From Lentisphaerota bacterium (GTDB taxonomy: Bacteria > Verrucomicrobiota > Kiritimatiellia > CAIQIC01 > Lenti-01): a stretch of 64,000 bases of DNA. The stretch covers positions 31,077 to 95,076 of the forward strand of contig JAAZBB010000015.1 of assembly GCA_012514035.1 (NCBI GenBank), read 5' to 3'. Made by a program: the position numbers and the translations under genes. The notes beneath the pieces are model-generated. The model made no database searches. It saw only the letters and a program-made list of their open reading frames with translations, and was not told the origin of the DNA. Each line of letters opens with the position of its first letter. Position 1 is the first letter of the stretch. This document shows, piece after piece, positions 12,124 to 49,735 of the stretch.

Positions 12124-12828
12124 TCAGCCGTCGAGGCGGAAGGGGGAGAAGCGAGTGCGGGTGTCGTAGGGATCGGACTGTTCGGCGCGCTTGAGGCGGT
12201 GCACGATCCAGTAGGTCAGCGGAGTCGCCAGGACTTCATAAGCGGTCTTGAGCAGGAAGTTCCAGCAGGCGACCCGGACCACGAGTTGGACCGGCCAGAC
12301 GCCGCCGAAGGCAAGGACGGTGAAGAGGAGCGAATCCAGGCCTTCGCCGGCGATGGTGCTGCCGATGGTACGCATCCAGAGATGGCGGCCGGTCATCCAG
12401 ACCTTCATCTTGGCCATGACCCAGGCATTCAGAAACGAGCCGCACCAGAAGGCAACGAGACTGCCGAACACGACCCGCGGAGTTTGAAGAAGAATAGCGG
12501 CAAAGGCGTCCTGCATCTCCCAGCCGGGGGCCGGGGGCAGCAGCGCAACCAGCGAAAAAGCGGCTGCCGCGAAGAAGTTCAGGGCAAACCCCAGCCAGAT
12601 GACGCGTCGGGCCTGGGCGTATCCGTACACTTCAACCAGGATGTCGCCGAAAATGTAGGAGACCGGAAACAGCAGGTTGCCGCCATCCATCGTGATGAAC
12701 GGCAACCCGGGAAGAGTCAGGGGCTTGATGGCGCTGACGTTGGAAACGACCAGCACGGTGCAGAACACCGCGCTGATCGGTCCCAGCCAGCGCCGGGCGG
12801 AAACGGGGAAGGATTCCCCGGAGGGCAT
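12124..12828 (-). CDS. yhhQ: queuosine precursor transporter (YhhQ/Vut_1 family)
   Basis: FPVSYIFGDILVEVYG signature in a polytopic membrane protein. Confidence 0.78.
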   Translation of the reverse strand: MPSGESFPVSARRWLGPISAVFCTVLVVSNVSAIKPLTLPGLPFITMDGGNLLFPVSYIFGDILVEVYGYAQARRVIWLGFALNFFAAAAFSLVALLPPAPGWEMQDAFAAILLQTPRVVFGSLVAFWCGSFLNAWVMAKMKVWMTGRHLWMRTIGSTIAGEGLDSLLFTVLAFGGVWPVQLVVRVACWNFLLKTAYEVLATPLTYWIVHRLKRAEQSDPYDTRTRFSPFRLDG

Positions 12829-13712
12829 TATTTCCCGAACGGATTGATGTTTTTCAGCGCGCCGCCGACGGCGTCGCCGACGGCCTTCCCGGCATCCACC
12901 GCGCCGCCGACGACAGCCTTGCCCGCGTCGGTTGCGCCGCCAACGACGGCCTTCCCGGCATCCACGGCCCCTTCGCCGACGGCCAGGGCGCCTTCGCCGA
13001 CGGCCTTGCCGGCATCGCCGATCAGGTTGCCCGCACCGGCAATGGCGGTGCCGGCGGCTCCGGCGACGGCATTGAGGATTTCACGGATGGCCTCGGGAAT
13101 GCTGACGCCTTCCTTTTCCTTGCCCAGATCCGTCAGGGTAATGGGGGGCAGGGGAATGGGAATGGCCCCGCCGCCGGTCAGGGCCGCCGCTCCGGTGATG
13201 GAGAAGTTCATCTTGCTGCCGGTGATGGAGAGTTTTTCAATGACGACCTTCTTGCCGGGCTTTTCATCTTTGGGCGGCTCTGCCTTGGCTTCGCCTTCTT
13301 CTTCAGGTTTCTCTTCCTTGCCGGCCGAGAGCTGGTCGATCAAGGCGCCGAGATTGCTGTTGAGCAGGCCCTTTTCATAGGTCAGTTCAAGGCCTTCGAT
13401 GGTGATTTCCCGGATGACCATGGTGTCTGAAAGCAGGGTGGAGTTGTCGATATCCACCCGGACCGACCCGAGGTCAAACAGGCCCGGGGTGTTGAAGCCC
13501 TCGGGATTGCCGATGTGGAGGCCGCTGAGGGCGGCTTTGCCGCGCAGGAGAGAAATGTCGGCGTTGGCCAGGGTGGCCTCCACGCCGAGGGCGCCGGGTG
13601 CGGCGGCGTTGAAGCCCTTCAGGATCATTTTGTCCAGGGACAATTCCAGGACGACGAACAGAACGGCCAGGACGACGAGGACGCCAACCAGGATCTTCAA
13701 CAGCGTTTTCAT
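12828..13712 (-). CDS. membrane-anchored hypothetical protein with Gly/Ala-rich C-terminal repeats (AsmA-like?)
   Basis: Start set at MKTLLKILVGVLVVLAVLF (transmembrane anchor, AAGGAA ribosome-binding site 8 nt upstream). About five 11-aa DAGKAVxGGAx repeats at the C-terminus, encoded by 33-bp tandem DNA repeats. Confidence 0.5.
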   Translation of the reverse strand: MKTLLKILVGVLVVLAVLFVVLELSLDKMILKGFNAAAPGALGVEATLANADISLLRGKAALSGLHIGNPEGFNTPGLFDLGSVRVDIDNSTLLSDTMVIREITIEGLELTYEKGLLNSNLGALIDQLSAGKEEKPEEEGEAKAEPPKDEKPGKKVVIEKLSITGSKMNFSITGAAALTGGGAIPIPLPPITLTDLGKEKEGVSIPEAIREILNAVAGAAGTAIAGAGNLIGDAGKAVGEGALAVGEGAVDAGKAVVGGATDAGKAVVGGAVDAGKAVGDAVGGALKNINPFGK

Positions 13713-13892
13713 GGGCTCGATTCCTTGGATACCGCCGGATTTCACCTGGGCGCCGGGTACGGGGCCTGCAGGAATCCAGCGCCATAAACATAGCGCGGCG
13801 GACGGTGGCAATTCCAGCAAATTTCCGCAAACACTTGCCTGGCGCCAGGGGGGCGGGTTGCTTCTGCACGCGGGCCGGAGCCGGAGGAATGC

Positions 13893-16671: not shown

Positions 16672-16690
16672 AACAGCCGGGGAACCTTAA

Positions 16691-17101
16691 CTACGAATTA
16701 ATCGAATTGCACGAATGGGAAGGGGCTAGAAAACGTTCATATTCCAATTTGGGATAGTGACTGAAATTGACCAGCAAAGCCAGTATCTTGCCGGTAGCTT
16801 TCAGGTAATTGATGACTTGGGCGCGGTGTTCGTCGCTCAAGTTCTTTGCCGACTTGATTTCCACGATGATTTTATCGAAACAGAGAAAATCCGGTTGATA
16901 AGTTTGTTTGAGGGATTTCGTTTTGTAGCACAGTTTCAGTTGGGGATGCTCGATAAATGGGATGCCTTGATCTCTGAACTCCATTGCCAGGCATTCCTGA
17001 TAGACCGCTTCCAGGAATCCGTGTCCCAATTGATTGTAGACTTCGAAACAGGCTCCAACGATCTTGAAGCTTTCTTCCTTGAACAGGATTTCGGTTTTCA
17101 T
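16691..17101 (-). CDS. GxxExxY protein (PDDEXK_3 nuclease-superfamily-like)
   Basis: GACFEVYNQLGHGFLEAVYQECL matches the GxxExxY signature. Local GC is roughly 40% against ~65% in the flanks. Its ATG lies inside a 27-bp terminal inverted repeat. Confidence 0.7.
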   Translation of the reverse strand: MKTEILFKEESFKIVGACFEVYNQLGHGFLEAVYQECLAMEFRDQGIPFIEHPQLKLCYKTKSLKQTYQPDFLCFDKIIVEIKSAKNLSDEHRAQVINYLKATGKILALLVNFSHYPKLEYERFLAPSHSCNSINS

Positions 17102-21158: not shown

Positions 21159-21557
21159 CGCATCTCCGTTTCATTGACTTGCATTCCATTTTCCCCCTTC
21201 CTGTGGCCAGAGCCGGCCAGAGACCTCTCCAGAAACCCAACCGTCCGGGCATTGAGCCAACGCGCCCTGCCAACGACCAACAGCCGGCCCGGTCACCGCC
21301 CGGGCCTACAGCAAAACCAAGCCGCCCGCCCGCTGTCCGCAGGACCTGCATACCGGCGGTTGCTTTGGAATTTGCATAAGTAGGTTATGGTTCGGGCGGG
21401 CCCCACCACCTTGTGTGGTGGGGGAGCAAACTTTGCCTCCCATGGCGCAAGGCCATGGGGGGGCGAAACAACCAAGTTCATCACCCATATTAGCAAGGCT
21501 CAATAAAGAAACCGCCATCCCTTGCCCCACGGTCGCTGCCACTCATGTCAATGAACC
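21159..21557. repeat. mosaic interspersed repeat block (modules B', A, D')
   Basis: 21159-21363 is the reverse complement of 49312-49521. 21380-21483 is about 95% identical to 43422-43532. 21506-21557 is the reverse complement of 49244-49294. Confidence 0.85.
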
Positions 21558-31389: not shown

Positions 31390-31608
31390 TCAGTTGCTGG
31401 CGTGGGCGGCTCTCCACGCCCCGTGGATTTCATGCCGGGCGAAGATTCTTCCGGGCTGGCGGCCCAGCAGCAGGACGCGCTCGCCGTCCTTGTCGGTCCA
31501 TTCCGTGTTGTTTTGCTCGCACTTTTCGAAGGGCTTGAGCGTGGCGGGATCCGGCAGCCCTTCGACGATGGTGTCAGTCATGACATCCGGGCCCGTGTTG
31601 TAGAGCAC
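31390..31608 (-). pseudogene. duplicated 3' fragment of the GT32 glycosyltransferase gene at 34800-35582
   Basis: The 72-aa ORF is more than 90% identical to the C-terminal 70 aa of the 34800-35582 protein. The underlying 235-bp DNA (31418-31652) is about 96% identical to 34825-35059. Confidence 0.7.
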
Positions 31609-31778
31609 GCCATACTGCGACAGCGGGGCATGGGCGTTGCGCCCCAGGCGTTATAATGGGCCATCTGGCCATTTGTTCTTGGATCCTCGGCGGGCGGAAT
31701 TGAGTGTCCGCCGCGGCAGGCCAACATGCCGCTAGCTTATATTAAGAAACACCCATGGGGTGGCGGGAGGCCGCGATT

Positions 31779-34799: not shown

Positions 34800-35582
34800 C
34801 TATTTTGCATGCGCCTCGCGCCATGCCCCGTGGATTTCATGCCGGGCGAAGGTTTTGCCGGGCTGGCGGCCCAGCAGCAGGACGCGCTCGCCGTCCTTGT
34901 CGATCCATTCCGTATTGTTGTGCTCGCACTTTTCGAAGGGCTTGAGCGTGGCGGGATCCGGCAGCCCTTCGACGATGGTGTCAGTCATGACATCCGGCCC
35001 CGTGTTGTAGAGCACGCCATACTGCGACAGCGGGGCATGGGCGTTGCGCCCCAGGCGTTCCTGAATCCGGTTCAGGCACCGGGCCAGAATGGGCGAGTGG
35101 GGACGGCGGCTCCAGAAGACATAGTTGGCGATCCGCACGTTGTATTCCGGAACCTCCCCGCGAAACTCCCGGGTCATGGCCATGTTTTTCTGGACGGCCT
35201 CGTCGCTGTTTACGAATTCCGTCCAAGCCACGAAATCGGGTCCAGTTGGCACGGGCTTGCGTCCCCATTCAATATCGTGGTCGGAATAGATGCCCGCGCG
35301 GTCGTAGATCAGCAGCAAACGCAGGATGTCGGATCGCATCACCGGCGACGTGTAGGGTGCCCAGAAAAGTTCATAAATTCCCGGGAATTGGTCTTGATGC
35401 CGGGCCAAAAGGGCCCGGGTCTCGGCTTGACTGGACCACAGGATGACTTTTGCGCCCCGCGGCTTCCGTTTGTCCAGCGATCGCAAGTACCCGGTCGGAA
35501 TCGGATTGCCGTCGTTTTCCAGCCAGATCTTGTAAACTAGAACGACTGACTGAGGGGCAAAAGGCCAGCGGAAGAATTTCAT
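34800..35582 (-). CDS. glycosyltransferase family 32-like (DXD sugar-binding region)
   Basis: LLLIYDRAGIYSDHDIEW resembles the Gly_transf_sug DxD region. Start set at MKFFRWPF (ATG 35582). Confidence 0.58.
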   Translation of the reverse strand: MKFFRWPFAPQSVVLVYKIWLENDGNPIPTGYLRSLDKRKPRGAKVILWSSQAETRALLARHQDQFPGIYELFWAPYTSPVMRSDILRLLLIYDRAGIYSDHDIEWGRKPVPTGPDFVAWTEFVNSDEAVQKNMAMTREFRGEVPEYNVRIANYVFWSRRPHSPILARCLNRIQERLGRNAHAPLSQYGVLYNTGPDVMTDTIVEGLPDPATLKPFEKCEHNNTEWIDKDGERVLLLGRQPGKTFARHEIHGAWREAHAK

Positions 35583-35854
35583 GATGGAATCCGTTCGAAG
35601 AACTGGTGTTGGGTTGTCTGCCGCTCTGGCGCGAATTCGCATGTCCAATCGGCGCGAGCCGGTTCATCTCTTGAAGCCAAGCAGATCGTCGGGCAAACCA
35701 CAAGACAGATGTCCAGGGCATGGAAATCCTCATGGCGCGCTCCCCAGGTTCCGCCGTCTTCATCAGCGGGACACAGAAGGGCGCCAAACGGAAAGAACCG
35801 GAGTCCGGTCCCCCGGCCGCTTCCATTGAACAAAGCATGTGTTGACCACCGGCC

Positions 35855-37678
35855 ATGCCCGGGATGACGGGGTTGCGAAATCTGAGCAGCCGACGGCGGT
35901 CATTTCACCTGCTCCGGCGGATGCATTTGGCGCTTTCTCTGCTTTGCGGTTCCCTTTACTATCACGGTGAAATGAACTGGGGAGTCACAATGGCCAGAAG
36001 AGCATCCGGCATAACGAATCTGATCCAGACGGCGCAGCATGGGCTCCGGGCCATAATCCGCCGCAGGTGGCTGCGATACGCGTGCTATGGTTCGGCCGGG
36101 GTGTTCATGTATCTGGCTCAGTGTTCCGCCTTGCATTTGAATCTGAACGGTGGAGATGCGTTCATGGGGGGGCATGACATAACCGCGCATTACATCGGAT
36201 GGCAATTTTATCGGGCAGAGCCATGGGGACTTCCTCTGGGAAGAATTCAGAGTTACATGCACCCTTTCGGAACAACAATTACCCAGACGGATTCCATTCC
36301 CTGGGTGGCGGCAATCGCCAAATTGTTTTCAAGATGGCTGCCGCAGAAGTTTCAGTATTTTGGGTGGTGGACCCTATTCTGCTTTATCATGCAGGGCGTG
36401 ATGGCCGGCCGGCTTTTCGACGCGCGTTTCAGGTCTTTCCTGGCAACGATGGCCGCCGTGACCCTCCTGCTGTTGAGCCCGCCCATGATGTACCGGCTGT
36501 TTTTCCACTCGGCGCTTGTGGCGCACTGGCTGCTGCTCTGGGCCGTTTATCTGTTTCTGGAAGCGTTGGATGGCCGTTCACACTGGCGGGAATGGGTCCT
36601 GAATCTGTCCCTCAGCATCGTCACCCATCCCTATCTGTTCGCCATGAATTTCATGATGGGATTTTGGTGCACGGTTCATGCGGTATGCGACCACCGTGCC
36701 CATCCCCTGAATAGATGGAGCCTGGTGCATGCGGCCCTGCCGTGCCTGTGCAGCCTCGCAGCGGGTTTCGTGTTCGGGGTGTTTTCTTCCATCGGGAAGG
36801 CCCCGGCCATCGGGCTGGGCGTTTGGTCTGCCAATTTGAATGCTTTTTTCAATCCCATGGATTGGTCCGTTTTTTTGAAGGGTCTCGATTACCTGAAAGG
36901 GCAATACGCGGGTTTTGCCTATCCGGGACTCGGGGTCCTCCTGGCGGGATTCATGGCGCTGATCTTGGTGGCGGCGCGCTGGCGGGCGCATGAGTTCCAG
37001 GCCGCAGGCAGGAAACTGATCTTTCTGGCGTTGGTTGTCCTGTCGCTGATGGCCTTTGCCGTCGGGCCGAAGGTGGCCTTCGGTTCGAGGGAGTTGTTCT
37101 CCTATGAGCTCCCGCATGGCCTCATGGAAATGTGGTCGATCTTCCGGGCCACAGGTCGCTTTGTCTGGCCCGTGTGCTACTTGTTGGTTTTTATCAGCCT
37201 GTTGCAGTACTGGCGCGGGTTGGATGTCCTGTCCCGTGGCCGTCAGAGCCGGAATGTCTTGGCGATGTGGCTGTTGGTGCTCATCCAGGTGGCGGATTTG
37301 TCATGGGCGGCGCGGATACGCAGGTGGCAGCATTCCCTGCCCCGGCAATATACGCCCACTCTGGTTGATTCCGCCTGGGAGCGCCTCGGCGATCGTTATA
37401 AGCATCTGATTGCATTGCCGCTTGACTACTCCCGATACGATGAACTGGCCCTGATTGCGGTGCGGAACGGCATGACACTCAATTATGGCTACGTATCCCG
37501 TGAACATCCTGACTACGTGGCCAAGGCCGAAGAAGACATTCGCAAATTGTGTCAGGGCGTGCCTGATGCCCAGACGGCGTACGTCATCAAGACAGAGGAC
37601 CTTCTGGCCCGGATCCAAACGGCCAATCCCCAATTAAATGCGACCTGCGCGGATGGCTTTTGGCTGGTGGCGCCGTGA
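35855..37678 (+). CDS. large polytopic membrane protein (possible GT-C-like glycosyl transferase/polymerase)
   Basis: More than 12 predicted transmembrane helices. Sits in a glycosyltransferase locus. Start uncertain: in-frame ATGs at 35855, 35921 and 35990. Confidence 0.45.
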   Translation: MPGMTGLRNLSSRRRSFHLLRRMHLALSLLCGSLYYHGEMNWGVTMARRASGITNLIQTAQHGLRAIIRRRWLRYACYGSAGVFMYLAQCSALHLNLNGGDAFMGGHDITAHYIGWQFYRAEPWGLPLGRIQSYMHPFGTTITQTDSIPWVAAIAKLFSRWLPQKFQYFGWWTLFCFIMQGVMAGRLFDARFRSFLATMAAVTLLLLSPPMMYRLFFHSALVAHWLLLWAVYLFLEALDGRSHWREWVLNLSLSIVTHPYLFAMNFMMGFWCTVHAVCDHRAHPLNRWSLVHAALPCLCSLAAGFVFGVFSSIGKAPAIGLGVWSANLNAFFNPMDWSVFLKGLDYLKGQYAGFAYPGLGVLLAGFMALILVAARWRAHEFQAAGRKLIFLALVVLSLMAFAVGPKVAFGSRELFSYELPHGLMEMWSIFRATGRFVWPVCYLLVFISLLQYWRGLDVLSRGRQSRNVLAMWLLVLIQVADLSWAARIRRWQHSLPRQYTPTLVDSAWERLGDRYKHLIALPLDYSRYDELALIAVRNGMTLNYGYVSREHPDYVAKAEEDIRKLCQGVPDAQTAYVIKTEDLLARIQTANPQLNATCADGFWLVAP

Positions 37679-37705
37679 CTCCAGCCGGAATGCAAAGGTT
37701 TGCGC

Positions 37706-38575
37706 TTAATTTCGGCGGCTGCCATGTGGGGGAACAAATTCCCTCAAAGACAGATCGATCTGGCCGGCATCGCCTGGAGGAAGAATCCGACCACCTCGCC
37801 AGGCAAGCAAAACCATTTCTTTGAATGAGGCAACCAGGTTTTTGGGTAATGCGCCCCGGCCAACGCCGCTTTTTCGGATTTGATCATCGAGCGGAGCCTC
37901 TTTCACCCGGGCATTCAACATGCGCGCCATGGCCAGCATCTCCGTGTCCACGAACGGGCTGCGGCATTGTACGGTCATCCGGTCAAGAAGTGACCTGCGG
38001 AAAAAGCGGATCCAGTGCAGATCACGTACTTGTATTCCAAAAAGAAACCGGACCAGCAGGCGATCACAAGCGGATATGGCCTTGCGGTACATGGGCTCCT
38101 TCCGTGACCTGGGATCGCGATAGGTAATCAGCGCATCGCAATCGGTCAGGCCCGCTGCCAGCCGGGGCAGTTCATTCAAGTCGGCTTGCAGGTCCGCGGG
38201 AAACCAAGTTGACCATTCGCCCCGGCTTGTAAAGTAACAGGTACGGATGCCTTCCCCGATTCCCAGATTACGCCGGTGAAGCACCGCTCGGCAGTGCGGG
38301 AGCACCTCGACCAGGTGCGTAATCAGATTGCGGGACCCGTCGGATGAGCCGTCATCCACCAATACAATTTCGTGAGTGACTCCCATTAGGGCCAAGACCC
38401 GGGCAGCCGTCCGGGCGGCTTCTTCCAGCGTGTGGATTTCGTTGTAGTTTAATATGGCCACGCTGAGAAAAGGGTTGATTCCTGGCGGGTTTGGCTGGGG
38501 CTGACAGGACGGTGGCCGGGGCGGATCAGGGATGTCTTCCTGGTGGCCTGTTTCGGCATGTTGGGGTTTCATCAT
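37706..38575 (-). CDS. glycosyltransferase family 2 (Dpm1/polyprenyl-phosphate sugar transferase-like)
   Basis: LSVAILNYNE...VLVDDGSSDGS GT-A signature. Start set at ATG 38575. Confidence 0.8.
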   Translation of the reverse strand: MMKPQHAETGHQEDIPDPPRPPSCQPQPNPPGINPFLSVAILNYNEIHTLEEAARTAARVLALMGVTHEIVLVDDGSSDGSRNLITHLVEVLPHCRAVLHRRNLGIGEGIRTCYFTSRGEWSTWFPADLQADLNELPRLAAGLTDCDALITYRDPRSRKEPMYRKAISACDRLLVRFLFGIQVRDLHWIRFFRRSLLDRMTVQCRSPFVDTEMLAMARMLNARVKEAPLDDQIRKSGVGRGALPKNLVASFKEMVLLAWRGGRILPPGDAGQIDLSLREFVPPHGSRRN

Positions 38576-39043
38576 CGCTATGCAATATGATTCCCTTGAA
38601 AGCGTTGGCTGTCGAGTCAGGAATAGATCAGGGATCAGATATCCGCACGGATCTGGCTGAATGTTGTCCGGTTGAGGATGGCATCCTGCGCGGGCCGTCC
38701 CCCAAGGATACGTTCCGGCGCAGCGATGGTTCATGGCATGCAGGGGGGCTGCGGGCCGATGGATTGGCGGCACTCACCGGTTGTGACGGGATCGACGATG
38801 GTGCTGATGCCCTTCCCGCCTTGATTCCATTCCGCCATCAACCAGCGCGCTTTTCAATGGAAATGCAGTGGCAAAAATAATTCCGAAAAGGACTTGCTAT
38901 GGGAATGGCTTTGCAGTCCAATTTGCATCGTCCTCTTCTTCTGGAAACGATGGGAGGGCCGCGGGCCGACTCAGGTACGGGAGGGAATCCATGCCCCGAC
39001 CGGTCGGCTTGTTATTCGAAAAAAACACAGCGAAAGGAATGGC

Positions 39044-40285
39044 ATGAAACATACGAGACTCCTCGCCGGGACGCTGTGCGTCGCGGCAGCTTTGGCCGCG
39101 CAGGGTGTGTTCGGCGCGGGTTTTGGCATCTATGAAGGTTCCGCCCGCGGCAACGCCATGGGCACGGAAGTCACGGCCGATCCGGCCTCGCCCTCGGTGT
39201 TGTACAACAATGCTGCGGCCATGACGGAACTGGAGGGCACCCAGGTCGAAGCGGGGGCCACGTTCATTCGGCCGCATGTGACGGTGGTCACGCTGACGCC
39301 GGCGGGCGCCGTGGACAACAAGGCTGAAAGCCGGTGGTGGACGCCTCCGCATGCCTACGTGACCCATCAGGTCAACGACAAGATCTGGGCGGGCCTGGGC
39401 GTGTTCAGCCGTTTCGGACTGGGCGTGGACCACGATGATGACTGGCTTGGACGCTACAACTGCCAGGAAGCCACCATCCAGAGCATTGACGTCAATCCCT
39501 CCGTGGCCTTCAAGGTGATGGATACCCTTTCGCTGGCCGCCGGCCTGCGCGCCGAATGGTTCGAGTTTGCCCTGGATCAGGCTCTGCCCACGGGTACCCC
39601 GTTCGTCGATCCGGACCTGCAGTTCCACATGAAAGGAGACAGCTGGGGCATCGGTTACAATCTGGGCGCCTTTTTCCAGGCCAGTGAATGGCTGGCTTTC
39701 GGCCTGGCGTATGAAAGCGAAGTCGACCAGGAGGTCGAAGGCACCTATCATGTCAGCCATCCGAATCCCGCGGTGGCCAGCGGCGACGGCGAGGGCGACG
39801 TTACCACGCCCTCGATTCTGCGTTTCGGGGCCTCGGCCAAGGCCACGGACAAGCTGACGGTCAACGCCGGCCTTGTCTACACGATGTGGAGTTCTTATGA
39901 GGACCTGACCATTGATTTCAATCCTGCGCTGCTGGGCGCAGTGCCGCGCAGCTCCAAGGTGAAGGATTGGGACGATGCGTTCCGCTATCAGATTGGCGCG
40001 GAATATGCGTTGGATGAGACCTGGGCGCTGCGCGCCGGCTACATCTATGATGAAACCCCGATTCCCGATGCGCACGTGGATTACATTGTGCCGGCCAATG
40101 ACCGCAATTTGTTCTCGCTGGGCGTCGGCTACAAGAAGGGCGATTTCTTCTGCGACCTGGCCTACACCTATCTGTTGATCAAGGATCGCGACGTGGCCGC
40201 CCGGGTTGCCGATGGCGTGCTGCCCGGCGAGTTCAAGGACGGCGATGCCCACATGATCGGCCTGTCGCTCGGCTACAAACTCTAA
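39044..40285 (+). CDS. outer-membrane transport protein, FadL/OmpP1/TodX family
   Basis: Signal peptide MKHTRLLAGTLCVAAALAAQG, then GIYEGSARGNAMGTEVTAD and beta-barrel periodicity. C-terminal ...GLSLGYKL. Confidence 0.72.
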   Translation: MKHTRLLAGTLCVAAALAAQGVFGAGFGIYEGSARGNAMGTEVTADPASPSVLYNNAAAMTELEGTQVEAGATFIRPHVTVVTLTPAGAVDNKAESRWWTPPHAYVTHQVNDKIWAGLGVFSRFGLGVDHDDDWLGRYNCQEATIQSIDVNPSVAFKVMDTLSLAAGLRAEWFEFALDQALPTGTPFVDPDLQFHMKGDSWGIGYNLGAFFQASEWLAFGLAYESEVDQEVEGTYHVSHPNPAVASGDGEGDVTTPSILRFGASAKATDKLTVNAGLVYTMWSSYEDLTIDFNPALLGAVPRSSKVKDWDDAFRYQIGAEYALDETWALRAGYIYDETPIPDAHVDYIVPANDRNLFSLGVGYKKGDFFCDLAYTYLLIKDRDVAARVADGVLPGEFKDGDAHMIGLSLGYKL

Positions 40286-40307
40286 AATTCCAGTTCATCT
40301 GGGCTGA

Positions 40308-40338
40308 AGCCCCGAAACTCCCGTTTCGGGGCTTTTTG
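40308..40338 (+). terminator. rho-independent terminator after the FadL-like gene
   Basis: AGCCCCGAAAC-tccc-GTTTCGGGGCT, an 11-bp stem followed by TTTTTGT. Confidence 0.75.
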
Positions 40339-40610
40339 TCGCCCGTTGAGGGATTGTGCAGGATGCTCAAAGTGCATGCGGACGCATAGAGACGCATGGA
40401 ATGAACATTGTGCCTGCCGGAACTGGGCCGGGAAAAGGGGCGCTCGGGGGGGGGCGCGAAGGCTCTCTTGCCACGCAGACGGCTTGCAGAAATTGCCGCC
40501 GAATTGTTGCTTTGGGGCGGGGGAGCCGGGAGCGGTACGCATTTCGATGAATCCGCCTCCGGAACAAGAATCCAGGTGGAGATCAGGGACGCGAGGGCGG
40601 AGATATCCGT

Positions 40611-42068
40611 TTACCGGGGGGCAAAGGGGAAAAGCAGGGCTTTCTTCACGGCCTCCTCGTTGTGGACGTGGGCCAGCACAGTCACTTGGTCGCCGCCCCG
40701 GAGGCGGGTCGAGCCGTTGGGACTGACGACCTGCGGTCCCCGGCTGACCAAGGTGATGACGCTGTCGGGCGGCAGGCGCAGATCTTGAATGCGCAGTTCC
40801 GGGTTAGGCCCGTGTTCGGGAAGATCGACGACCACGAGATCCATGTCACTGGGGGCCATGGTGACGAGTTCGAGGCTGTACATCGGTTCGGGCCGGGTGC
40901 GTCGGGCCAGGAGGCGAAAGAGCCGGGCGACGGGCCCGAGCGTGGAACCCTGGATCAGGACGGAGAGGATCACGGCGAAAAAGACCAGGTTGAATATGTC
41001 TTGGCTGCCGGGGAGATTGGCGGCGGCGGGATAGGTGGCCAGTACGATCGGAACGGCGCCGCGGAGACCCGCCCAGCTCATGAAAACAAGGTGAGGAATG
41101 CGGATTCCCATGCCGAGGGTGCTGAGGGCAACGGCGAGCGGGCGGGAGATGAAGGTCAAGGTCAGGAAGAGAATCAGGCCGTCCGCCCAGATGTGGGTCC
41201 ATTGCCGGGGAAAAACAAGCAGGCCGAGAAGAATGAAGGTGCAGATGTTCGCAACGCTGGCGAAAGCGGCCGAAAACTGGGCGACGCCCTGCTTGTGGAC
41301 GAAGGAGTGGTTGCCCATGACGTGGCCGGCGATGAAAACGGCCAGCATGCCGCTGGAATGCATGAGTTCGGCCAGCCCGTAGGTGAGCAGGACGATGCCG
41401 AAGAACAGGACGTAGTAGTAGCCGCGATCCTGGAAGCGGAGCTTGTTGAACAGCCAAACCGAGGCGCGGCCCATGAGCCAGCCGAGAAGGGGACCGGCGG
41501 CAAACTTCCAGGCGGATGCAAGTGCCGTCCAGAAATTCGGAACCTGGCCGGCGGCGAGGGTTTGGACGGCCACGACCGTGAGCAGCACCGCCATCGGATC
41601 GTTCGCGGCGCTTTCGATGACGAGCGTGCTGGAAAGTCGTTTGGGGAGCGCGTATCGGCGGAGAATCGAGAAGGTGGCGGCCGCGTCGGTGGAAGAAATG
41701 ATGGCGGCCAGCAGGCAAGCCTTTTCGAACGGCCAGCCCAGCACTTTCCAGAGGAACGCCAAGGTGATGCCGGCGGTGAGCATGACGCCCCAGACAGCCA
41801 GCCCTCCGGCGGGAAGGGCAACGGCCCTGAAATCGTTGCGCTTGATGCCGAAGCCCCCCTGGAAAAGAATGAAAACCAGGGCGAAATTGGCAATCCGGTT
41901 GGCGAGCAGCGCGTTGTCGAAATGCCACAGGTTGAGGACGTCGCTGCCAAACAGGATGCCGCCGCCAAGGGCAACGAGAATGACGGGCACGCTCCAGCGG
42001 TCGAGCCAGACCGCGGCGAGCACGACCGAAATCAAAATCATGGGACTGACGATGTAAACGAGGTCCAT
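40611..42068 (-). CDS. cation:proton antiporter (CPA1; NhaP2-like) with C-terminal TrkA-C domain
   Basis: Twelve to thirteen transmembrane helices and a C-terminal regulatory domain (LVVVDLPEHG...VTVLAHV). Start set at ATG 42068. Confidence 0.78.
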   Translation of the reverse strand: MDLVYIVSPMILISVVLAAVWLDRWSVPVILVALGGGILFGSDVLNLWHFDNALLANRIANFALVFILFQGGFGIKRNDFRAVALPAGGLAVWGVMLTAGITLAFLWKVLGWPFEKACLLAAIISSTDAAATFSILRRYALPKRLSSTLVIESAANDPMAVLLTVVAVQTLAAGQVPNFWTALASAWKFAAGPLLGWLMGRASVWLFNKLRFQDRGYYYVLFFGIVLLTYGLAELMHSSGMLAVFIAGHVMGNHSFVHKQGVAQFSAAFASVANICTFILLGLLVFPRQWTHIWADGLILFLTLTFISRPLAVALSTLGMGIRIPHLVFMSWAGLRGAVPIVLATYPAAANLPGSQDIFNLVFFAVILSVLIQGSTLGPVARLFRLLARRTRPEPMYSLELVTMAPSDMDLVVVDLPEHGPNPELRIQDLRLPPDSVITLVSRGPQVVSPNGSTRLRGGDQVTVLAHVHNEEAVKKALLFPFAPR

Positions 42069-42228
42069 GGGCGTTATTCCACAGGCGGAACGCAGCACTT
42101 TAGCGGCGTTCAAGCGAACAAATGACCCATAAGTATGGCGGCAAGGATGCGTTTTAGGCAAACGTATTTTGGCGGTTTAGATCTGGCGATCGGGCGCAGC
42201 CCGGTTCCATTGACAACGATTGGCCAAA

Positions 42229-42440
42229 TTTGGAGTGCGGCGGGAAGCGAGGCTCGGCGATCGCCACGCCGCTTTTTGTTTTTGGGGAGGCAGCCGAACG
42301 GTCAGCCATAACAGCCGGAACAGCCAAAGCGGGGCCGCCTCCCGTTGGTCGTTGTCCCCGCACTCCAAACCGATCCGCGCAATTTGGAGTGCGGCGGGAA
42401 GCGAGGCTCGGCGATCGCCACGCCGTTTTGGGGGGTGCCC
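42229..42440. repeat. interspersed repeat module C (one full and one partial tandem copy)
   Basis: 42229-42369 is about 90% identical to 49522-49664, with TTTGGAGTGCGG...CCGCACTCCAAA terminal inverted ends. A second partial copy sits at 42381-42425. Confidence 0.85.
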
Positions 42441-42571
42441 GGTTTTGAGCGTGTGTGTTTTTGGCCTTGCAACCGGCGGGAATTTGAAGTAATGAAGATT
42501 AGATCGCCGAGTCACTCAGCGGGCATTCCGTGTAACGGCCGAGTTGCGGATATGCCCAAGGAGGTGCCACC

Positions 42572-43387
42572 ATGAAACAAAGCACGAAAGCCCCGGCCAA
42601 GCACGTCAGCCGCACGGTCCAGTCGCCTCGGTTGCTCGGCAGCAAAAGCGACATGCCCCGGATGTTGCTGGTCGACGTTTCCAGGCCCATGCGCCGGCTT
42701 CTGGTCAAAATGCTGAAGAAATCGTCGCCCGACATTGTCGTGGCCGCAGCCGGTTCCGTAGCCGAGGCCGTGCGTATCATCGATGCACTGAGGCCCCAGA
42801 CCATCCTGCTGAGCCTGGACCTTCCGGACGGCAGCGGGTTGGAAATCCTGCGCCACGCCATGGCGTTGGACCCCTATTGCATGGTCGTCGTCCTGACGGG
42901 CCGTACGGATGCGGAAACCCGGCTGGAGTGCTTCGAGGAAGGCGCGGATTTCGTGTTCGACAAATCGGCCTCTTTTGAGCGCGCCATCGAAACGGCGGGA
43001 CAGGCTTCGCGCCGGCAGTTGTTCAGAATTCCGCGTCAGCCGATCTCGCGACAATTCATCAGCGAGGATTTCGTGTTGGCGAACAAATCGGGGTTGCATG
43101 TTTTGCCCGCGGCCCGGCTGGTGAAGCTGGCCAGCGGGTACCATGCGGCCATCGAGATTGCCTATGGTGACCAGAAAGCCAATGCCAAGGCCATGATGGA
43201 AGTCATGGCCCTCGGCGCCGAATGCGGCGCCCGTATAACCGTGACGGCTGCGGGCCAGGATGCGGACCAGGCGCTGGCGGGAATCCGCAGCCTCGTCGCG
43301 AAAAACTTTCATGACGAGGCTTGTTCGCGCCGCCGCCGAAACAGGGCAAGCCGGAGCCCCCGGCCGAATAATGGCCCGCCGAAATAG
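42572..43387 (+). CDS. response-regulator receiver (REC) domain fused to HPr phosphocarrier domain
   Basis: N-terminal REC (LLVDVS..., LLSLDLPDGSG, VVLTGRTD, FVFDKS). C-terminal HPr fold (GLHVLPAARLVKLASGYHAAIEI...MEVMALGAECGARITVTAAG) with His15 retained and the Ser46 position occupied by Ala. Confidence 0.75.
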   Translation: MKQSTKAPAKHVSRTVQSPRLLGSKSDMPRMLLVDVSRPMRRLLVKMLKKSSPDIVVAAAGSVAEAVRIIDALRPQTILLSLDLPDGSGLEILRHAMALDPYCMVVVLTGRTDAETRLECFEEGADFVFDKSASFERAIETAGQASRRQLFRIPRQPISRQFISEDFVLANKSGLHVLPAARLVKLASGYHAAIEIAYGDQKANAKAMMEVMALGAECGARITVTAAGQDADQALAGIRSLVAKNFHDEACSRRRRNRASRSPRPNNGPPK

Positions 43388-43421
43388 GAAGTCCGGCCCA
43401 TCTCTATTGAGTTTTTCAAAA

Positions 43422-43532
43422 GTAGGTTGCGGTTATGGTTCGGGCGGGCCCCGCCACCTTGTGTGGTGGGGGAGCTAACTTTGCCTCCCATGGCGCAAGG
43501 CCATGGGGGGGGCGAAACAGCCAAGTTCATCA
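43422..43532. repeat. interspersed repeat module A (solo copy), two GC-rich hairpins
   Basis: About 95% identical to 21380-21483. The hairpins are CCCC(A/G)CCACC-ttgtg-TGGTGGGGG and CCCATGGC-gcaag-GCCATGGG. Confidence 0.85.
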
Positions 43533-43609
43533 ATTTGGATGCGTCCGAGAAACTCGGCTGATCAAAATGGACTGGATTCGAAAGGCGCGCGGCGGCTAGA
43601 CTGCGCGCC

Positions 43610-44767
43610 ATGGACCCGGTTCGGGCAAAACGGATTGCAGTGGATGCGCGGTGGGTGTTCCGTGAATTGAGCGGGATCGGCCGCTACACACTCGAACTGT
43701 TGCGGGAACTGGGGGAAATCGGCGGGGCATTCCATTTCCTGGTGCTGGTGCGCGACGCGGAGCGGCGGGCATTCATCGCGCGGGAGGCCGGGCTGGCGGA
43801 CCGGGCGAATTTCGAGTTTGCGGAGCTGCCCCATGGCGTGTTTTCGCCGCTGGGCCAGTTCGCCGCAGCGCGACTGCTGCGCGAACGCATGGTGGACATC
43901 TACCACTCGACGAATTTCATGATTCCGCTACCGGCCTTTCCCCGGCACCGGCCGCATGCGATCCGCTGCGTCTGCAACATCCACGATTTGATTCCCCTGG
44001 TGCATCCGGAATTCACGCCGCGCGCGCTGAAGACGCGGTTTTACCCGGTGTACAAGGCGCTGATGCATCAAATTGCGCGGCGGGTGGATACGGTGGTGAC
44101 GGGCAGTGAATCGGCCCGTCGTGACATTGTCCGCCTGCTGGGGATTCCCGGGGAACGCATCGTGGTGGCGCCGGATGGCGTGGCGGCGCACTATGGGCCC
44201 GCCGGCGAGAAGCCGTCGGCCCGGGGCGGGCCGAAGACCGTGCTCTATGTGGGCCGGAGCGATCCTTACAAGAACCTGCCCGGGCTGGTTGCGGTCTTTG
44301 CACGGCTGGTGCGCGAGACCGGGATGGACGTCCGCCTGCGCATCGTGGGCTCTCCGGACGCGCGCTATCCGGAGGCCGGGGAGGCGGCGCGGCGGCTAGG
44401 GGTGGCCGACCGGGTGGAATGGTCGGGTTATCTCGACGAGGCCGGACTGCTGAAGGCTTATCAGGAGGCCGATGTGCTGGCGCTGTTGTCGCGCTACGAG
44501 GGATTCGGCCTGCCGGTGCTGGAGGCCATGGCCTGCGGCACACCCGTGGTTTGTTCCGATGCGGCCAGCCTGCCGGAAGTGGTCGGCGGCGCGGCTTGGC
44601 TGGTCAATCCGGATGACCAGGCGGAGGCCGTGGCGGCCCTGCGCGAGGTGCTGACCAATCCGGCGGCGGCGGAGCGCTTGCGGACCGCCGGACTGGAACG
44701 GGCGCGGCAATTCACCTGGCAGGCGGCGGCGGCGGCCGTTCTGCGCGTGTATGGCGGGGCACCATGA
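43610..44767 (+). CDS. glycosyltransferase family 4
   Basis: EGFGLPVLEAMACGTPVVCSDAASLPEVVG EX7E motif. Confidence 0.85.
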   Translation: MDPVRAKRIAVDARWVFRELSGIGRYTLELLRELGEIGGAFHFLVLVRDAERRAFIAREAGLADRANFEFAELPHGVFSPLGQFAAARLLRERMVDIYHSTNFMIPLPAFPRHRPHAIRCVCNIHDLIPLVHPEFTPRALKTRFYPVYKALMHQIARRVDTVVTGSESARRDIVRLLGIPGERIVVAPDGVAAHYGPAGEKPSARGGPKTVLYVGRSDPYKNLPGLVAVFARLVRETGMDVRLRIVGSPDARYPEAGEAARRLGVADRVEWSGYLDEAGLLKAYQEADVLALLSRYEGFGLPVLEAMACGTPVVCSDAASLPEVVGGAAWLVNPDDQAEAVAALREVLTNPAAAERLRTAGLERARQFTWQAAAAAVLRVYGGAP

Positions 44768-49084: not shown

Positions 49085-49160
49085 TGGAGCCAAAGGTCGG
49101 ATTCGAACCGACGACCGTCGCATTACGAATGCGGTGCTCTGCCAGCTGAGCTACTTTGGC
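49085..49160 (-). tRNA. tRNA-Thr (anticodon CGU)
   Basis: Reverse complement folds as a cloverleaf: acceptor GCCAAAG/CTTTGGC, D-arm GCTC-AGCTGGCA-GAGC, anticodon loop TTCGTAA (CGT), T-arm GTCGG-TTCGAAT-CCGAC, encoded CCA. Closely resembles canonical tRNA-Thr(CGU). Confidence 0.9.
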
Positions 49161-49216: not shown

Positions 49217-49735
49217 TGCGCGGTTGTTTCCGGGCGTCTCTCCGGTTCATGGACATGAGTGGCAGGGACCGTGGGGCAAGGGATGGCGGTTTCTTCAGGA
49301 TTTTGACGGCGCGAAAACCAACCGCCGGCATGCAGGTCCTGCGGACAGCGGGCGGGCGGCTTGGTTTTGCTGTAGGCCCGGGCGGTGACCGGGCGGGCTG
49401 TTGGTCGTTTGGCAGGGTGCGTTGGCCAAATGCCCGGACAGTTGGATTTCTGGAGAGGTTTCTGGCCGGCTCTGGCCACAGGAAGGGGGGGGATGCAAGT
49501 CAATGAAACGGAGATGCGCCCTTTGGAGTGCGGCGGGAAGCGAGGCTTGGCGAGCGCCACACCGCTTTTTCTGGGTGCAGCCGAACCGGCGGCGGAACAG
49601 CCAACAGCCGGAACAGCCAAAGCGGGGCCGCCTCCCGTTGGTCGTTGTCCCCGCACTCCAAAAAGGCCGGCCGATGGGAGTCAGATATTTCATGTCCGGT
49701 CGGTCAATGACACAGAGATGCGCGGTTGTTTCCGG
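49217..49735. repeat. composite repeat element (modules D-B-C) bounded by 17-bp direct repeats TGCGCGGTTGTTTCCGG
   Basis: Direct repeats at 49217-49233 and 49719-49735. D at 49244-49294, B at 49312-49521 and C at 49522-49664 match the copies at 21159-21557 and 42229-42369. Confidence 0.85.

Follow-up and report, generated by a model that had tools for sequence, protein, structure and literature searches.

BIMEs of E. coli are mosaics of REP units and other motifs, for which gyrase or IHF binding and mRNA stabilisation have been reported as functions. In Pseudomonas, a CTTG loop within a G/C palindrome forms the core of REPINs (Bertels and Rainey 2011, PMC3116915). GTAG-tagged REPs are reported to be highly enriched in Opitutus terrae, where intragenic REPs are also the most numerous and where intragenic dimers code for 20-30 residues (Di Nocera et al. 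2013, PMC3733652). The same work (PMC3733652) cites the Rickettsia palindromic elements (RPEs), palindromes that can insert in frame into conserved coding genes.

Here, we describe a GC-rich double hairpin that is present in exactly two copies, both on the + strand, in a 64-kb stretch of DNA (the window, meaning the whole stretch that was analysed), where chance would predict none. The element is probably a copy of an interspersed family of REP-type palindromic repeats of Opitutales-like Verrucomicrobiota that would be subject to mobilisation, and this family is a REP/BIME/REPIN-class repeat that is new to that class and carries no GTAG tag. Judged from its sequence, its architecture is that of a REP doublet (REPIN or BIME) with GC-rich stems of 8-9 bp, 5-nt loops and a 15-nt spacer.

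The element shares with the GTAG REPs of O. terrae and the Opitutaceae the GC-rich stems of 8-9 bp, the 5-nt CTTGY/RCAAG loop and the relative arrangement of these parts, as well as the occurrence of singles and inverted dimers, in-frame intragenic insertions of 20-30 residues and the bacterial order. Those REPs have a GTAG head and GGCYCGAC stems, whereas the element has no GTAG head, stems of the form CCCCAYSRC and a fixed 15-nt spacer. The REPINs of Pseudomonas fluorescens SBW25 (PMC3116915) likewise combine two inverted REPs with a short spacer and a CTTG loop (GGGGGCTTGCCCCC), and their dispersed extragenic copies persist at orthologous sites; however, the whole SBW25 doublet is held as a hairpin, whereas only the local hairpins of the element covary. 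With E. coli BIMEs, the element has in common inverted units with conserved linkers, optional modules (a third hairpin at two of the collected loci, L006 and L009) and copies that lie in either orientation in 3' UTRs or between the genes of operons, but the sequences are unrelated. RPEs provide a parallel for a copy that we found inside purD, although they belong to another phylum, differ in sequence, are longer and are mostly intragenic, whereas copies of the element are mostly intergenic.

Results

Two copies in the window

Copy 2 lies between the REC-HPr gene (42572-43387, + strand) and a GT4 glycosyltransferase gene (43610-44767, + strand), the location assigned to it in the initial annotation. 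Its conserved 79-nt core (43439-43517, + strand) consists of TTCGGGCGGG, hairpin 1, the spacer, hairpin 2 and a G-run, and scores 102.7 bits (E = 1e-24) against the covariance model described below, compared with only 34 bits for the reverse strand. Hairpin 1, CCCCGCCAC-CTTGT-GTGGTGGGG (43449-43471, + strand), has 9 bp including G43453·T43467, and compensatory changes occur in three of these nine pairs among 23 collected copies. It is followed by the 15-nt spacer GAGCTAACTTTGCCT (43472-43486, + strand), which includes GAGCNAACTTTGCC, and by hairpin 2, CCCATGGC-GCAAG-GCCATGGG (43487-43507, + strand), which has 8 bp with compensatory changes in three. In RNAalifold, hairpin 2 extends to 11 bp with a bulge by drawing in GCCT and the G-run. 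The G-run and tail, GGGGGCGAAACAGCCAAGTTCATCA (tail GCGAAACAGCCAAGTTCATCA), were read directly from the sequence at 43508-43532 on the + strand. The alignment places an outer 5' arm, ATTGAGTTTTTCAAAAGTAGGTTGCGGTTATGG, upstream of the core (43406-43438, + strand), which is common only to the closest sub-family, comprising copy 1 (w1) and loci L019, L021 and L022. The copy 2 unit may also be closable, as CGAAAC of the tail could pair with GTTCG at 43440-43444; by eye, counterparts of this closing pair are GGTTC/GAACC in L004, GTTCGG/CCGAAC in L005 and GATC/GATC in L006.

Copy 1 is flanked by genes for pyruvate kinase and a CpXC protein, and both window copies are co-oriented with their adjoining genes. 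Its conserved core (21391-21469, + strand; 106.1 bits) contains hairpin 1 at 21401-21423 and hairpin 2 at 21439-21459. The alignment shows a partial outer 5' arm, TTTGCATAAGTAGGTTATGG, before the core (21371-21390, + strand), and the core is followed by the tail, which ends at 21483, and an outer 3' arm that is common to L022 and L014 (AACCAAGTTCATCA CCCATATTAGCAAGGCTCAAT; 21470-21504, + strand). The two copies differ at stem position 5 (A21405 in copy 1 and G43453 in copy 2, opposite T21419 and T43467, respectively), at one spacer base (A21428 versus T43476), in the length of the G-run (seven versus eight G) and at one tail base (A21471 versus G43520), and the 5' arm of copy 2 carries a 6-nt GGTTGC insertion relative to copy 1. 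The hairpins, the tail, the A-to-G change opposite a T and the second copy at 21380 that the initial annotation described are thus all present where it had placed them. Its drawing of the stems was right as to the two hairpins and inexact as to their arms: it gave TGGTGGGGG as a 3' arm, and stems of 9 bp and 8 bp with 5-nt loops describe the sequence better.

In the closest sub-family, which includes both window copies, L014, L019, L021 and L022, the core sits within a longer unit of ~165 nt with the outer arms ATTGAGTNTTGC ... GCAANNCTCAAT. Each window copy retains one of the two arms, and the arms are missing from most copies overall. In L022, the arm ATTGAGTCTTGC is complementary to the 3' end GCAATACTCAAT at 11 of 12 positions; this 3' partner is missing in copy 2.

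The window holds further repeats. A second, unrelated repeat of ~150 nt is MITE-like, with the terminal inverted repeats TTTGGAGTGCGGCGGGA ... TCCCCGCACTCCAAA; it occupies 42229-42380 and 42381-42429, amounting to 1.5 copies upstream of the REC-HPr gene, and 49516-49665, near the tRNA at 49088-49160. A 32-nt AT-richer repeat (TTAACTACGAATTA..CGAATT..CGAATGG) occurs at 1954-1985 and 16687-16718 with 88% identity, and a 253-nt direct repeat at 31400-31652 and 34807-35059 with 94% identity between copies.

Copies at other loci and modular build

Copies were collected by two exact-pattern scans, with the unpaired flank and the spacer as anchors. The scan of one genome per species yielded nine true matches in Verrucomicrobiota MAGs labelled Opitutia, Verrucomicrobia or 'Spartobacteria', and the scan of metagenome contigs yielded 15 further true copies on 14 contigs, with 2-3 copies per MAG in these exact-pattern scans. 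After deduplication, the set comprises 23 distinct core sequences from ~16 independent loci, 15 of them intergenic, in at least five MAGs plus metagenome contigs. Most of the fetched loci (1.4-14.9 kb) carry a single copy; L007 and L033 carry two each, and L012 carries a tandem pair. A search of plasmid and phage collections for the element returned no match. Several loci are orthologous between MAGs (L004/L005; L008/L009/L015; L012/L028/L033b), and identity between such loci is 90-96% in the core, compared with 43-88% in the 80-nt flanks.

All 23 copies are recovered by a covariance model derived from them; the two that contain an extra hairpin score 64-70 bits and the others 95-106 bits. It also adds two copies that the patterns had missed, L007 3864-3942 and, in tandem, L012 1704-1779, both of which retain the spacer with one mismatch each. 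Within the collected copies, the spacer part GAGCNAACTTTGCC, the flanks GCGGG and GGGGGC and the loops are invariant, although the invariance of the spacer is partly circular because it was imposed in both collection scans.

The covariance model additionally picks up single related hairpins, TTCA-CCCACGGG-ACAAG-CCCGTGGG-GGTC, alone or in other dimers, so that one hairpin unit is found as a single and in various dimer arrangements. In two copies, L006 1535-1643 and L009 1473-1583, a third hairpin of 30 nt lies between the spacer and hairpin 2; its sequence is CCCTCCTTCGCCAAGGCTTCGAAGGGCAGG in L009, and L006 has GACTTCAGAAGGCAGG where L009 has GGCTTCGAAGGGCAGG. This hairpin is absent from L008 and L015, which are orthologous loci, and its presence and absence show a mosaic, BIME-like build. 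On the 2.9-kb contig L012, hairpin units lie on both sides of a thyX-like gene (612-690 and 1625-1779), with two CTTGC-loop units in direct tandem upstream and, downstream, the double hairpin and after it a second copy that is degenerate. L012 is a local cluster of the double-hairpin repeat.

One collected contig, L019, derives from the organism of the window itself. It is 99.7% identical to window positions 34937-43549, starts within the 253-nt direct repeat and diverges 17 nt past the element, with a junction at 43549/43550 beyond which its last 107 nt differ from the window. The positions of these ends point to strain variation or an assembly break at repeats.

Conservation of the local hairpins

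Across 23 copies and 17 pairs, 98.0% of the 391 cells form standard pairs in the local hairpins; 375 cells are Watson-Crick, eight are G·U, six are A·C and two are other combinations. Six of the 17 pairs are altered on both sides in compensatory fashion, accounting for 34 cells. None of 500 shuffles reached the observed pairing or covariation score, and sliding the partners against each other reduced pairing to 35-70%. The variants of stem 1 are ACCAC/GTGGT, ACCGC/GCGGT, ACGGC/GCCGT and ATGGC/GCCAT, and those of stem 2 are CCCATGGC, CCCACGGC, CCAACGGC and CCCACGGG, whose 3' arms match in every case. RNAalifold independently gives both hairpins. The comparison of copies and the stem covariation that the initial annotation had proposed as a check thus clearly support its two hairpins.

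At 23 and 21 nt, the hairpins have the size of REPs, which are imperfect palindromes of 20-40 nt that form a stem-loop. Hairpin 2 is approximately the reverse complement of hairpin 1 (87% complementary over 24 positions, across the 15-nt spacer), which makes the element an inverted dimer. A REPIN-style long duplex between the two units was considered and rejected, as its 87.0% pairing compares with a shuffle mean of 87.2% and it shows no covariation. Complementarity between the CTTGY and RCAAG loops is unconvincing, with CG in nine copies, UG in eight, UA in three and a mismatch in three at the sole variable pair. Each local hairpin, and not the long doublet duplex, is kept by selection or copy-correction. 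Folding is moderately better than that of shuffled sequences on both strands (z = -2.4 and -2.8 on the + strand; -2.3 and -1.5 on the - strand). Because of the two-unit symmetry, the reverse strand also scores against the covariance model, at 35-48 bits across copies, and also folds into two hairpins.

A copy inside purD

At locus L002, the element lies at 2099-2185, antisense within purD, and is read through in frame in a - strand reading frame. The insert adds 29 residues (87 nt; EYGGFAPPRPCAVGGKVSSPTTQGGGARP) to the ATP-grasp domain of an otherwise intact gene. Alignment with solved PurD structures covers residues 2-233 and 263-440 of the protein encoded at L002, leaving the 29 intervening residues without a counterpart, and in 2qk4 residues 266 and 267 are contiguous where the insert sits. 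The inserted unit is the 87-nt core alone, without the outer arms. No target-site duplication could be defined at the purD insertion, where the apparent ATCAT repeat belongs to the conserved tail TCATCA of the element. From this alignment, the repeat can evidently insert into a gene.

Orientation, strand and gene neighbours

At 13 of the ~16 loci, the element lies directly downstream of a gene 3' end. Relative to the gene ending alongside, seven loci are sense (w1, w2, L007a, L012, L014, L020 and L021) and six are antisense, namely L003 (upstream of a nitroreductase gene), L004/5, L006 (between HNH and Amt genes), L016 (after tsf), L022 and L033a, while the copies at L007b and L008/15 lie between divergent genes. 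As is characteristic of REPs, copies occur in both orientations and as singles, dimers and mosaics. The neighbours (PK, CpXC, HPr, GT4, PurD, nitroreductase, Amt, ThyX, RNR, CusB-like, EF-Ts, PALP enzymes, Mur ligase and OMP) are unrelated housekeeping genes with no common function. The element is thus a dispersed, orientation-independent, modular palindromic repeat.

The initial annotation had taken the A-to-G change opposite a T, which keeps a G·U pair in RNA, as a sign that the element works as RNA rather than DNA. Stem position 5 is indeed G·U in four lineages. When near-identical copies of the same locus are merged, however, six independent G·U events stand against five A·C events. An A·C on the + strand corresponds to a G·U on the opposite strand, and the numbers thus show no asymmetry between the strands. 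The argument does not survive the totals of eight G·U and six A·C cells, the mixed orientation, the antisense purD copy and the unrelated neighbours.

Scans for RNA-gene features gave a similar picture. With Rfam, under both gathering and E-value thresholds, only the tRNA in the window reached a gathering score, and the best match over the element had E = 1.5-4, so that the Rfam search suggested alongside the initial annotation identified no family for it. At both window copies, a terminator scan found G-runs instead of a U-tract after the hairpins, and an intrinsic terminator was rejected at either copy as a GC-rich hairpin without a U-tract. No promoter-like site emerged from a sigma-70 scan of the surroundings of the two window copies, and unrelated loci share no conserved upstream sequence, leaving no mark of an own promoter. 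The proposed attenuator or sRNA gene is therefore unsupported, with no Rfam family, no U-tract and no fixed orientation or gene set. An integron attC site was also considered and rejected by eye, as there are no RYYYAAC/GTTRRRY cores and no cassette array.

REPs around RAYT genes

The O. terrae RAYT Oter_2468 was used as a query and gave 26 homologues; nine of 11 contig look-ups returned DNA, and flanks were read on eight contigs. GTAG REPs with CTTG(Y) or (R)CAAG loops stand on both sides of the RAYT genes of this homologue set on L041 (9860-9981 and 10553-10640) and also on L049, L051, L053, L054 and L060. An upstream REP has, for example, the form GTAG-GGCTCGAC-CTTGT-GTCGAGCC and a downstream one GGCCTCAC-RCAAG-GTGAGGCC-CTAC; individual examples are GTAG-GGCCTGAC-CTTGC-GTCAGGCC and GGCCTCAC-ACAAG-GTGAGGCC-CTAC. 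In some of these RAYT-flanking REPs, the centre, CAC-CTTGT-GTG, is identical to that of the element. Instead of a GTAG/CGTC head, the element has an invariant GCGG-G before unit 1, resembling GYRG at best, and a C-run in the equivalent position of unit 2. A GTAG does occur within AAGTAGG at 43421-43424, at a distance of 25 nt from the stem, and its conservation is confined to the closest sub-family.

The double-hairpin element was found in none of 12 RAYT-bearing loci. In turn, a tblastn search of the window and the element-carrying loci with five RAYT/TIRYT proteins found no RAYT, the sole match being an unrelated Y1 transposase in L028. Across the window, the collected loci and the RAYT-bearing loci, no RAYT or other transposase gene is flanked by the hairpins of the element.

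The L028 match lies in a region (12697-13770) with a low-GC gene for a 340-residue HUH/Y1 transposase-like protein (12701-13723, - strand). The gene is bounded by 25-bp inverted repeats, GGGGTCAGGCCTTGACATTTG, and adjoins thyX. By its sequence features, this region is a TIR-associated IS200-like element unrelated to the double hairpins.

Discussion

Several explanations of the double hairpin must be weighed. The initial annotation preferred a strand-specific structured RNA (an attenuator, a riboswitch-like leader or an sRNA gene) produced from the + strand, and the co-orientation of both window copies with their flanking genes, the A-to-G change that keeps a G·U pair, the G·U at stem position 5 in four lineages and the slightly better folding z-scores of the + strand are what such an RNA would lead one to expect. 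This explanation is nevertheless highly improbable. A·C mismatches are as many as G·U pairs, the element is antisense at L002, L003, L004/5, L006, L016, L022 and L033a, and conserved upstream sequence, a sigma-70 site at the window copies and an Rfam match are all lacking. The mixed orientation, the unrelated neighbour genes and the in-frame intragenic copy in purD effectively rule out a strand-specific regulatory RNA, and a repeat that inserts at multiple sites fits them. Orientation poses no difficulty for an RNA element recruited by the host to act either way round, protecting mRNA 3' ends or punctuating operons, in which case function rather than mobility would explain conservation. The location of 13 of the ~16 loci directly downstream of a gene 3' end, the two stable hairpins on both strands (with reverse-strand scores of 35-48 bits) and the conservation of the core over the flanks at orthologous loci make this a possibility to be taken seriously, if a doubtful one: the hairpins lack a following U-tract, the purD copy, like those that divergent genes flank (L007b, L008/15), is not placed to act on a 3' end, and a simple protective hairpin needs no invariant spacer or loops.

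The remaining alternatives operate at the level of DNA. The element could be a classical MITE moved by a DDE transposase through terminal inverted repeats, with the hairpins as incidental internal palindromes. The outer arms ATTGAGTNTTGC ... GCAANNCTCAAT of the closest sub-family, its ~165-nt unit and the 87% overall complementarity of the core halves are consistent with this, but most copies lack the arms and each window copy has only one of them, the purD insert is only the 87-nt core, no target-site duplication was found, and covariation backs the local hairpins instead of a long inverted repeat, all of which makes a MITE unlikely. A binding site in DNA for a host protein, such as a nucleoid protein, gyrase or a recombinase, by analogy with the BIME sites for gyrase and IHF, would work in either orientation and would account for the invariant spacer part GAGCNAACTTTGCC, loops and flanks (GCGGG and GGGGGC). 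We consider it quite improbable, because the compensatory stem changes indicate that the folded hairpin matters and not a duplex motif, and the invariance of the spacer is partly circular given that both scans imposed it.

We therefore favour a mobile REP-type palindromic repeat, and the term 'REP-like' in the initial annotation named the right class. Weighing against this reading are the small count of copies (two in the 64-kb window and 2-3 per MAG by exact pattern), the missing GTAG or CGTC head on both hairpins, the lack of a transposase gene flanked by these hairpins among the loci searched and the lack of a definable target-site duplication. The unit would spread as a non-autonomous mobile element in the form of hairpin DNA, and its hairpins, loops and flanks (GCGGG ... 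GAGC) may be recognised in single-stranded DNA by an HUH/Y1 transposase (RAYT or IS200 type) acting in trans. Stable hairpins that are co-transcribed, in either orientation, may also have incidental effects on the stability of mRNA 3' ends, as has been described for REPs, and RNA-hairpin effects in either orientation are possible. The greater conservation of the core than of its flanks, together with the invariant spacer, could reflect a host function rather than mere selfish spread. In a more far-reaching and improbable version, the element would be domesticated, either through a non-RAYT partner protein that recognises the spacer GAGCNAACTTTGCC and the CTTGY/RCAAG loops or as a loop-loop 'kissing' RNA module working in both orientations, with purifying selection at orthologous sites across Opitutales species.

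The REP-type repeat described here has practical value for annotation, as it accounts for a GC-rich double hairpin that recurs across genomes and MAGs of Opitutales and cautions against annotating the element as an RNA gene or attenuator. It also flags sites of assembly breaks or strain differences, as illustrated by contig L019, which ends 17 nt past the element. The purD insertion is a further case of REP-type repeats being tolerated in essential enzymes, as reported for Opitutus terrae. Should a cognate transposase be found, REPIN-RAYT biology would extend past GTAG-tagged repeats, but none of the present observations calls for a new mechanism.
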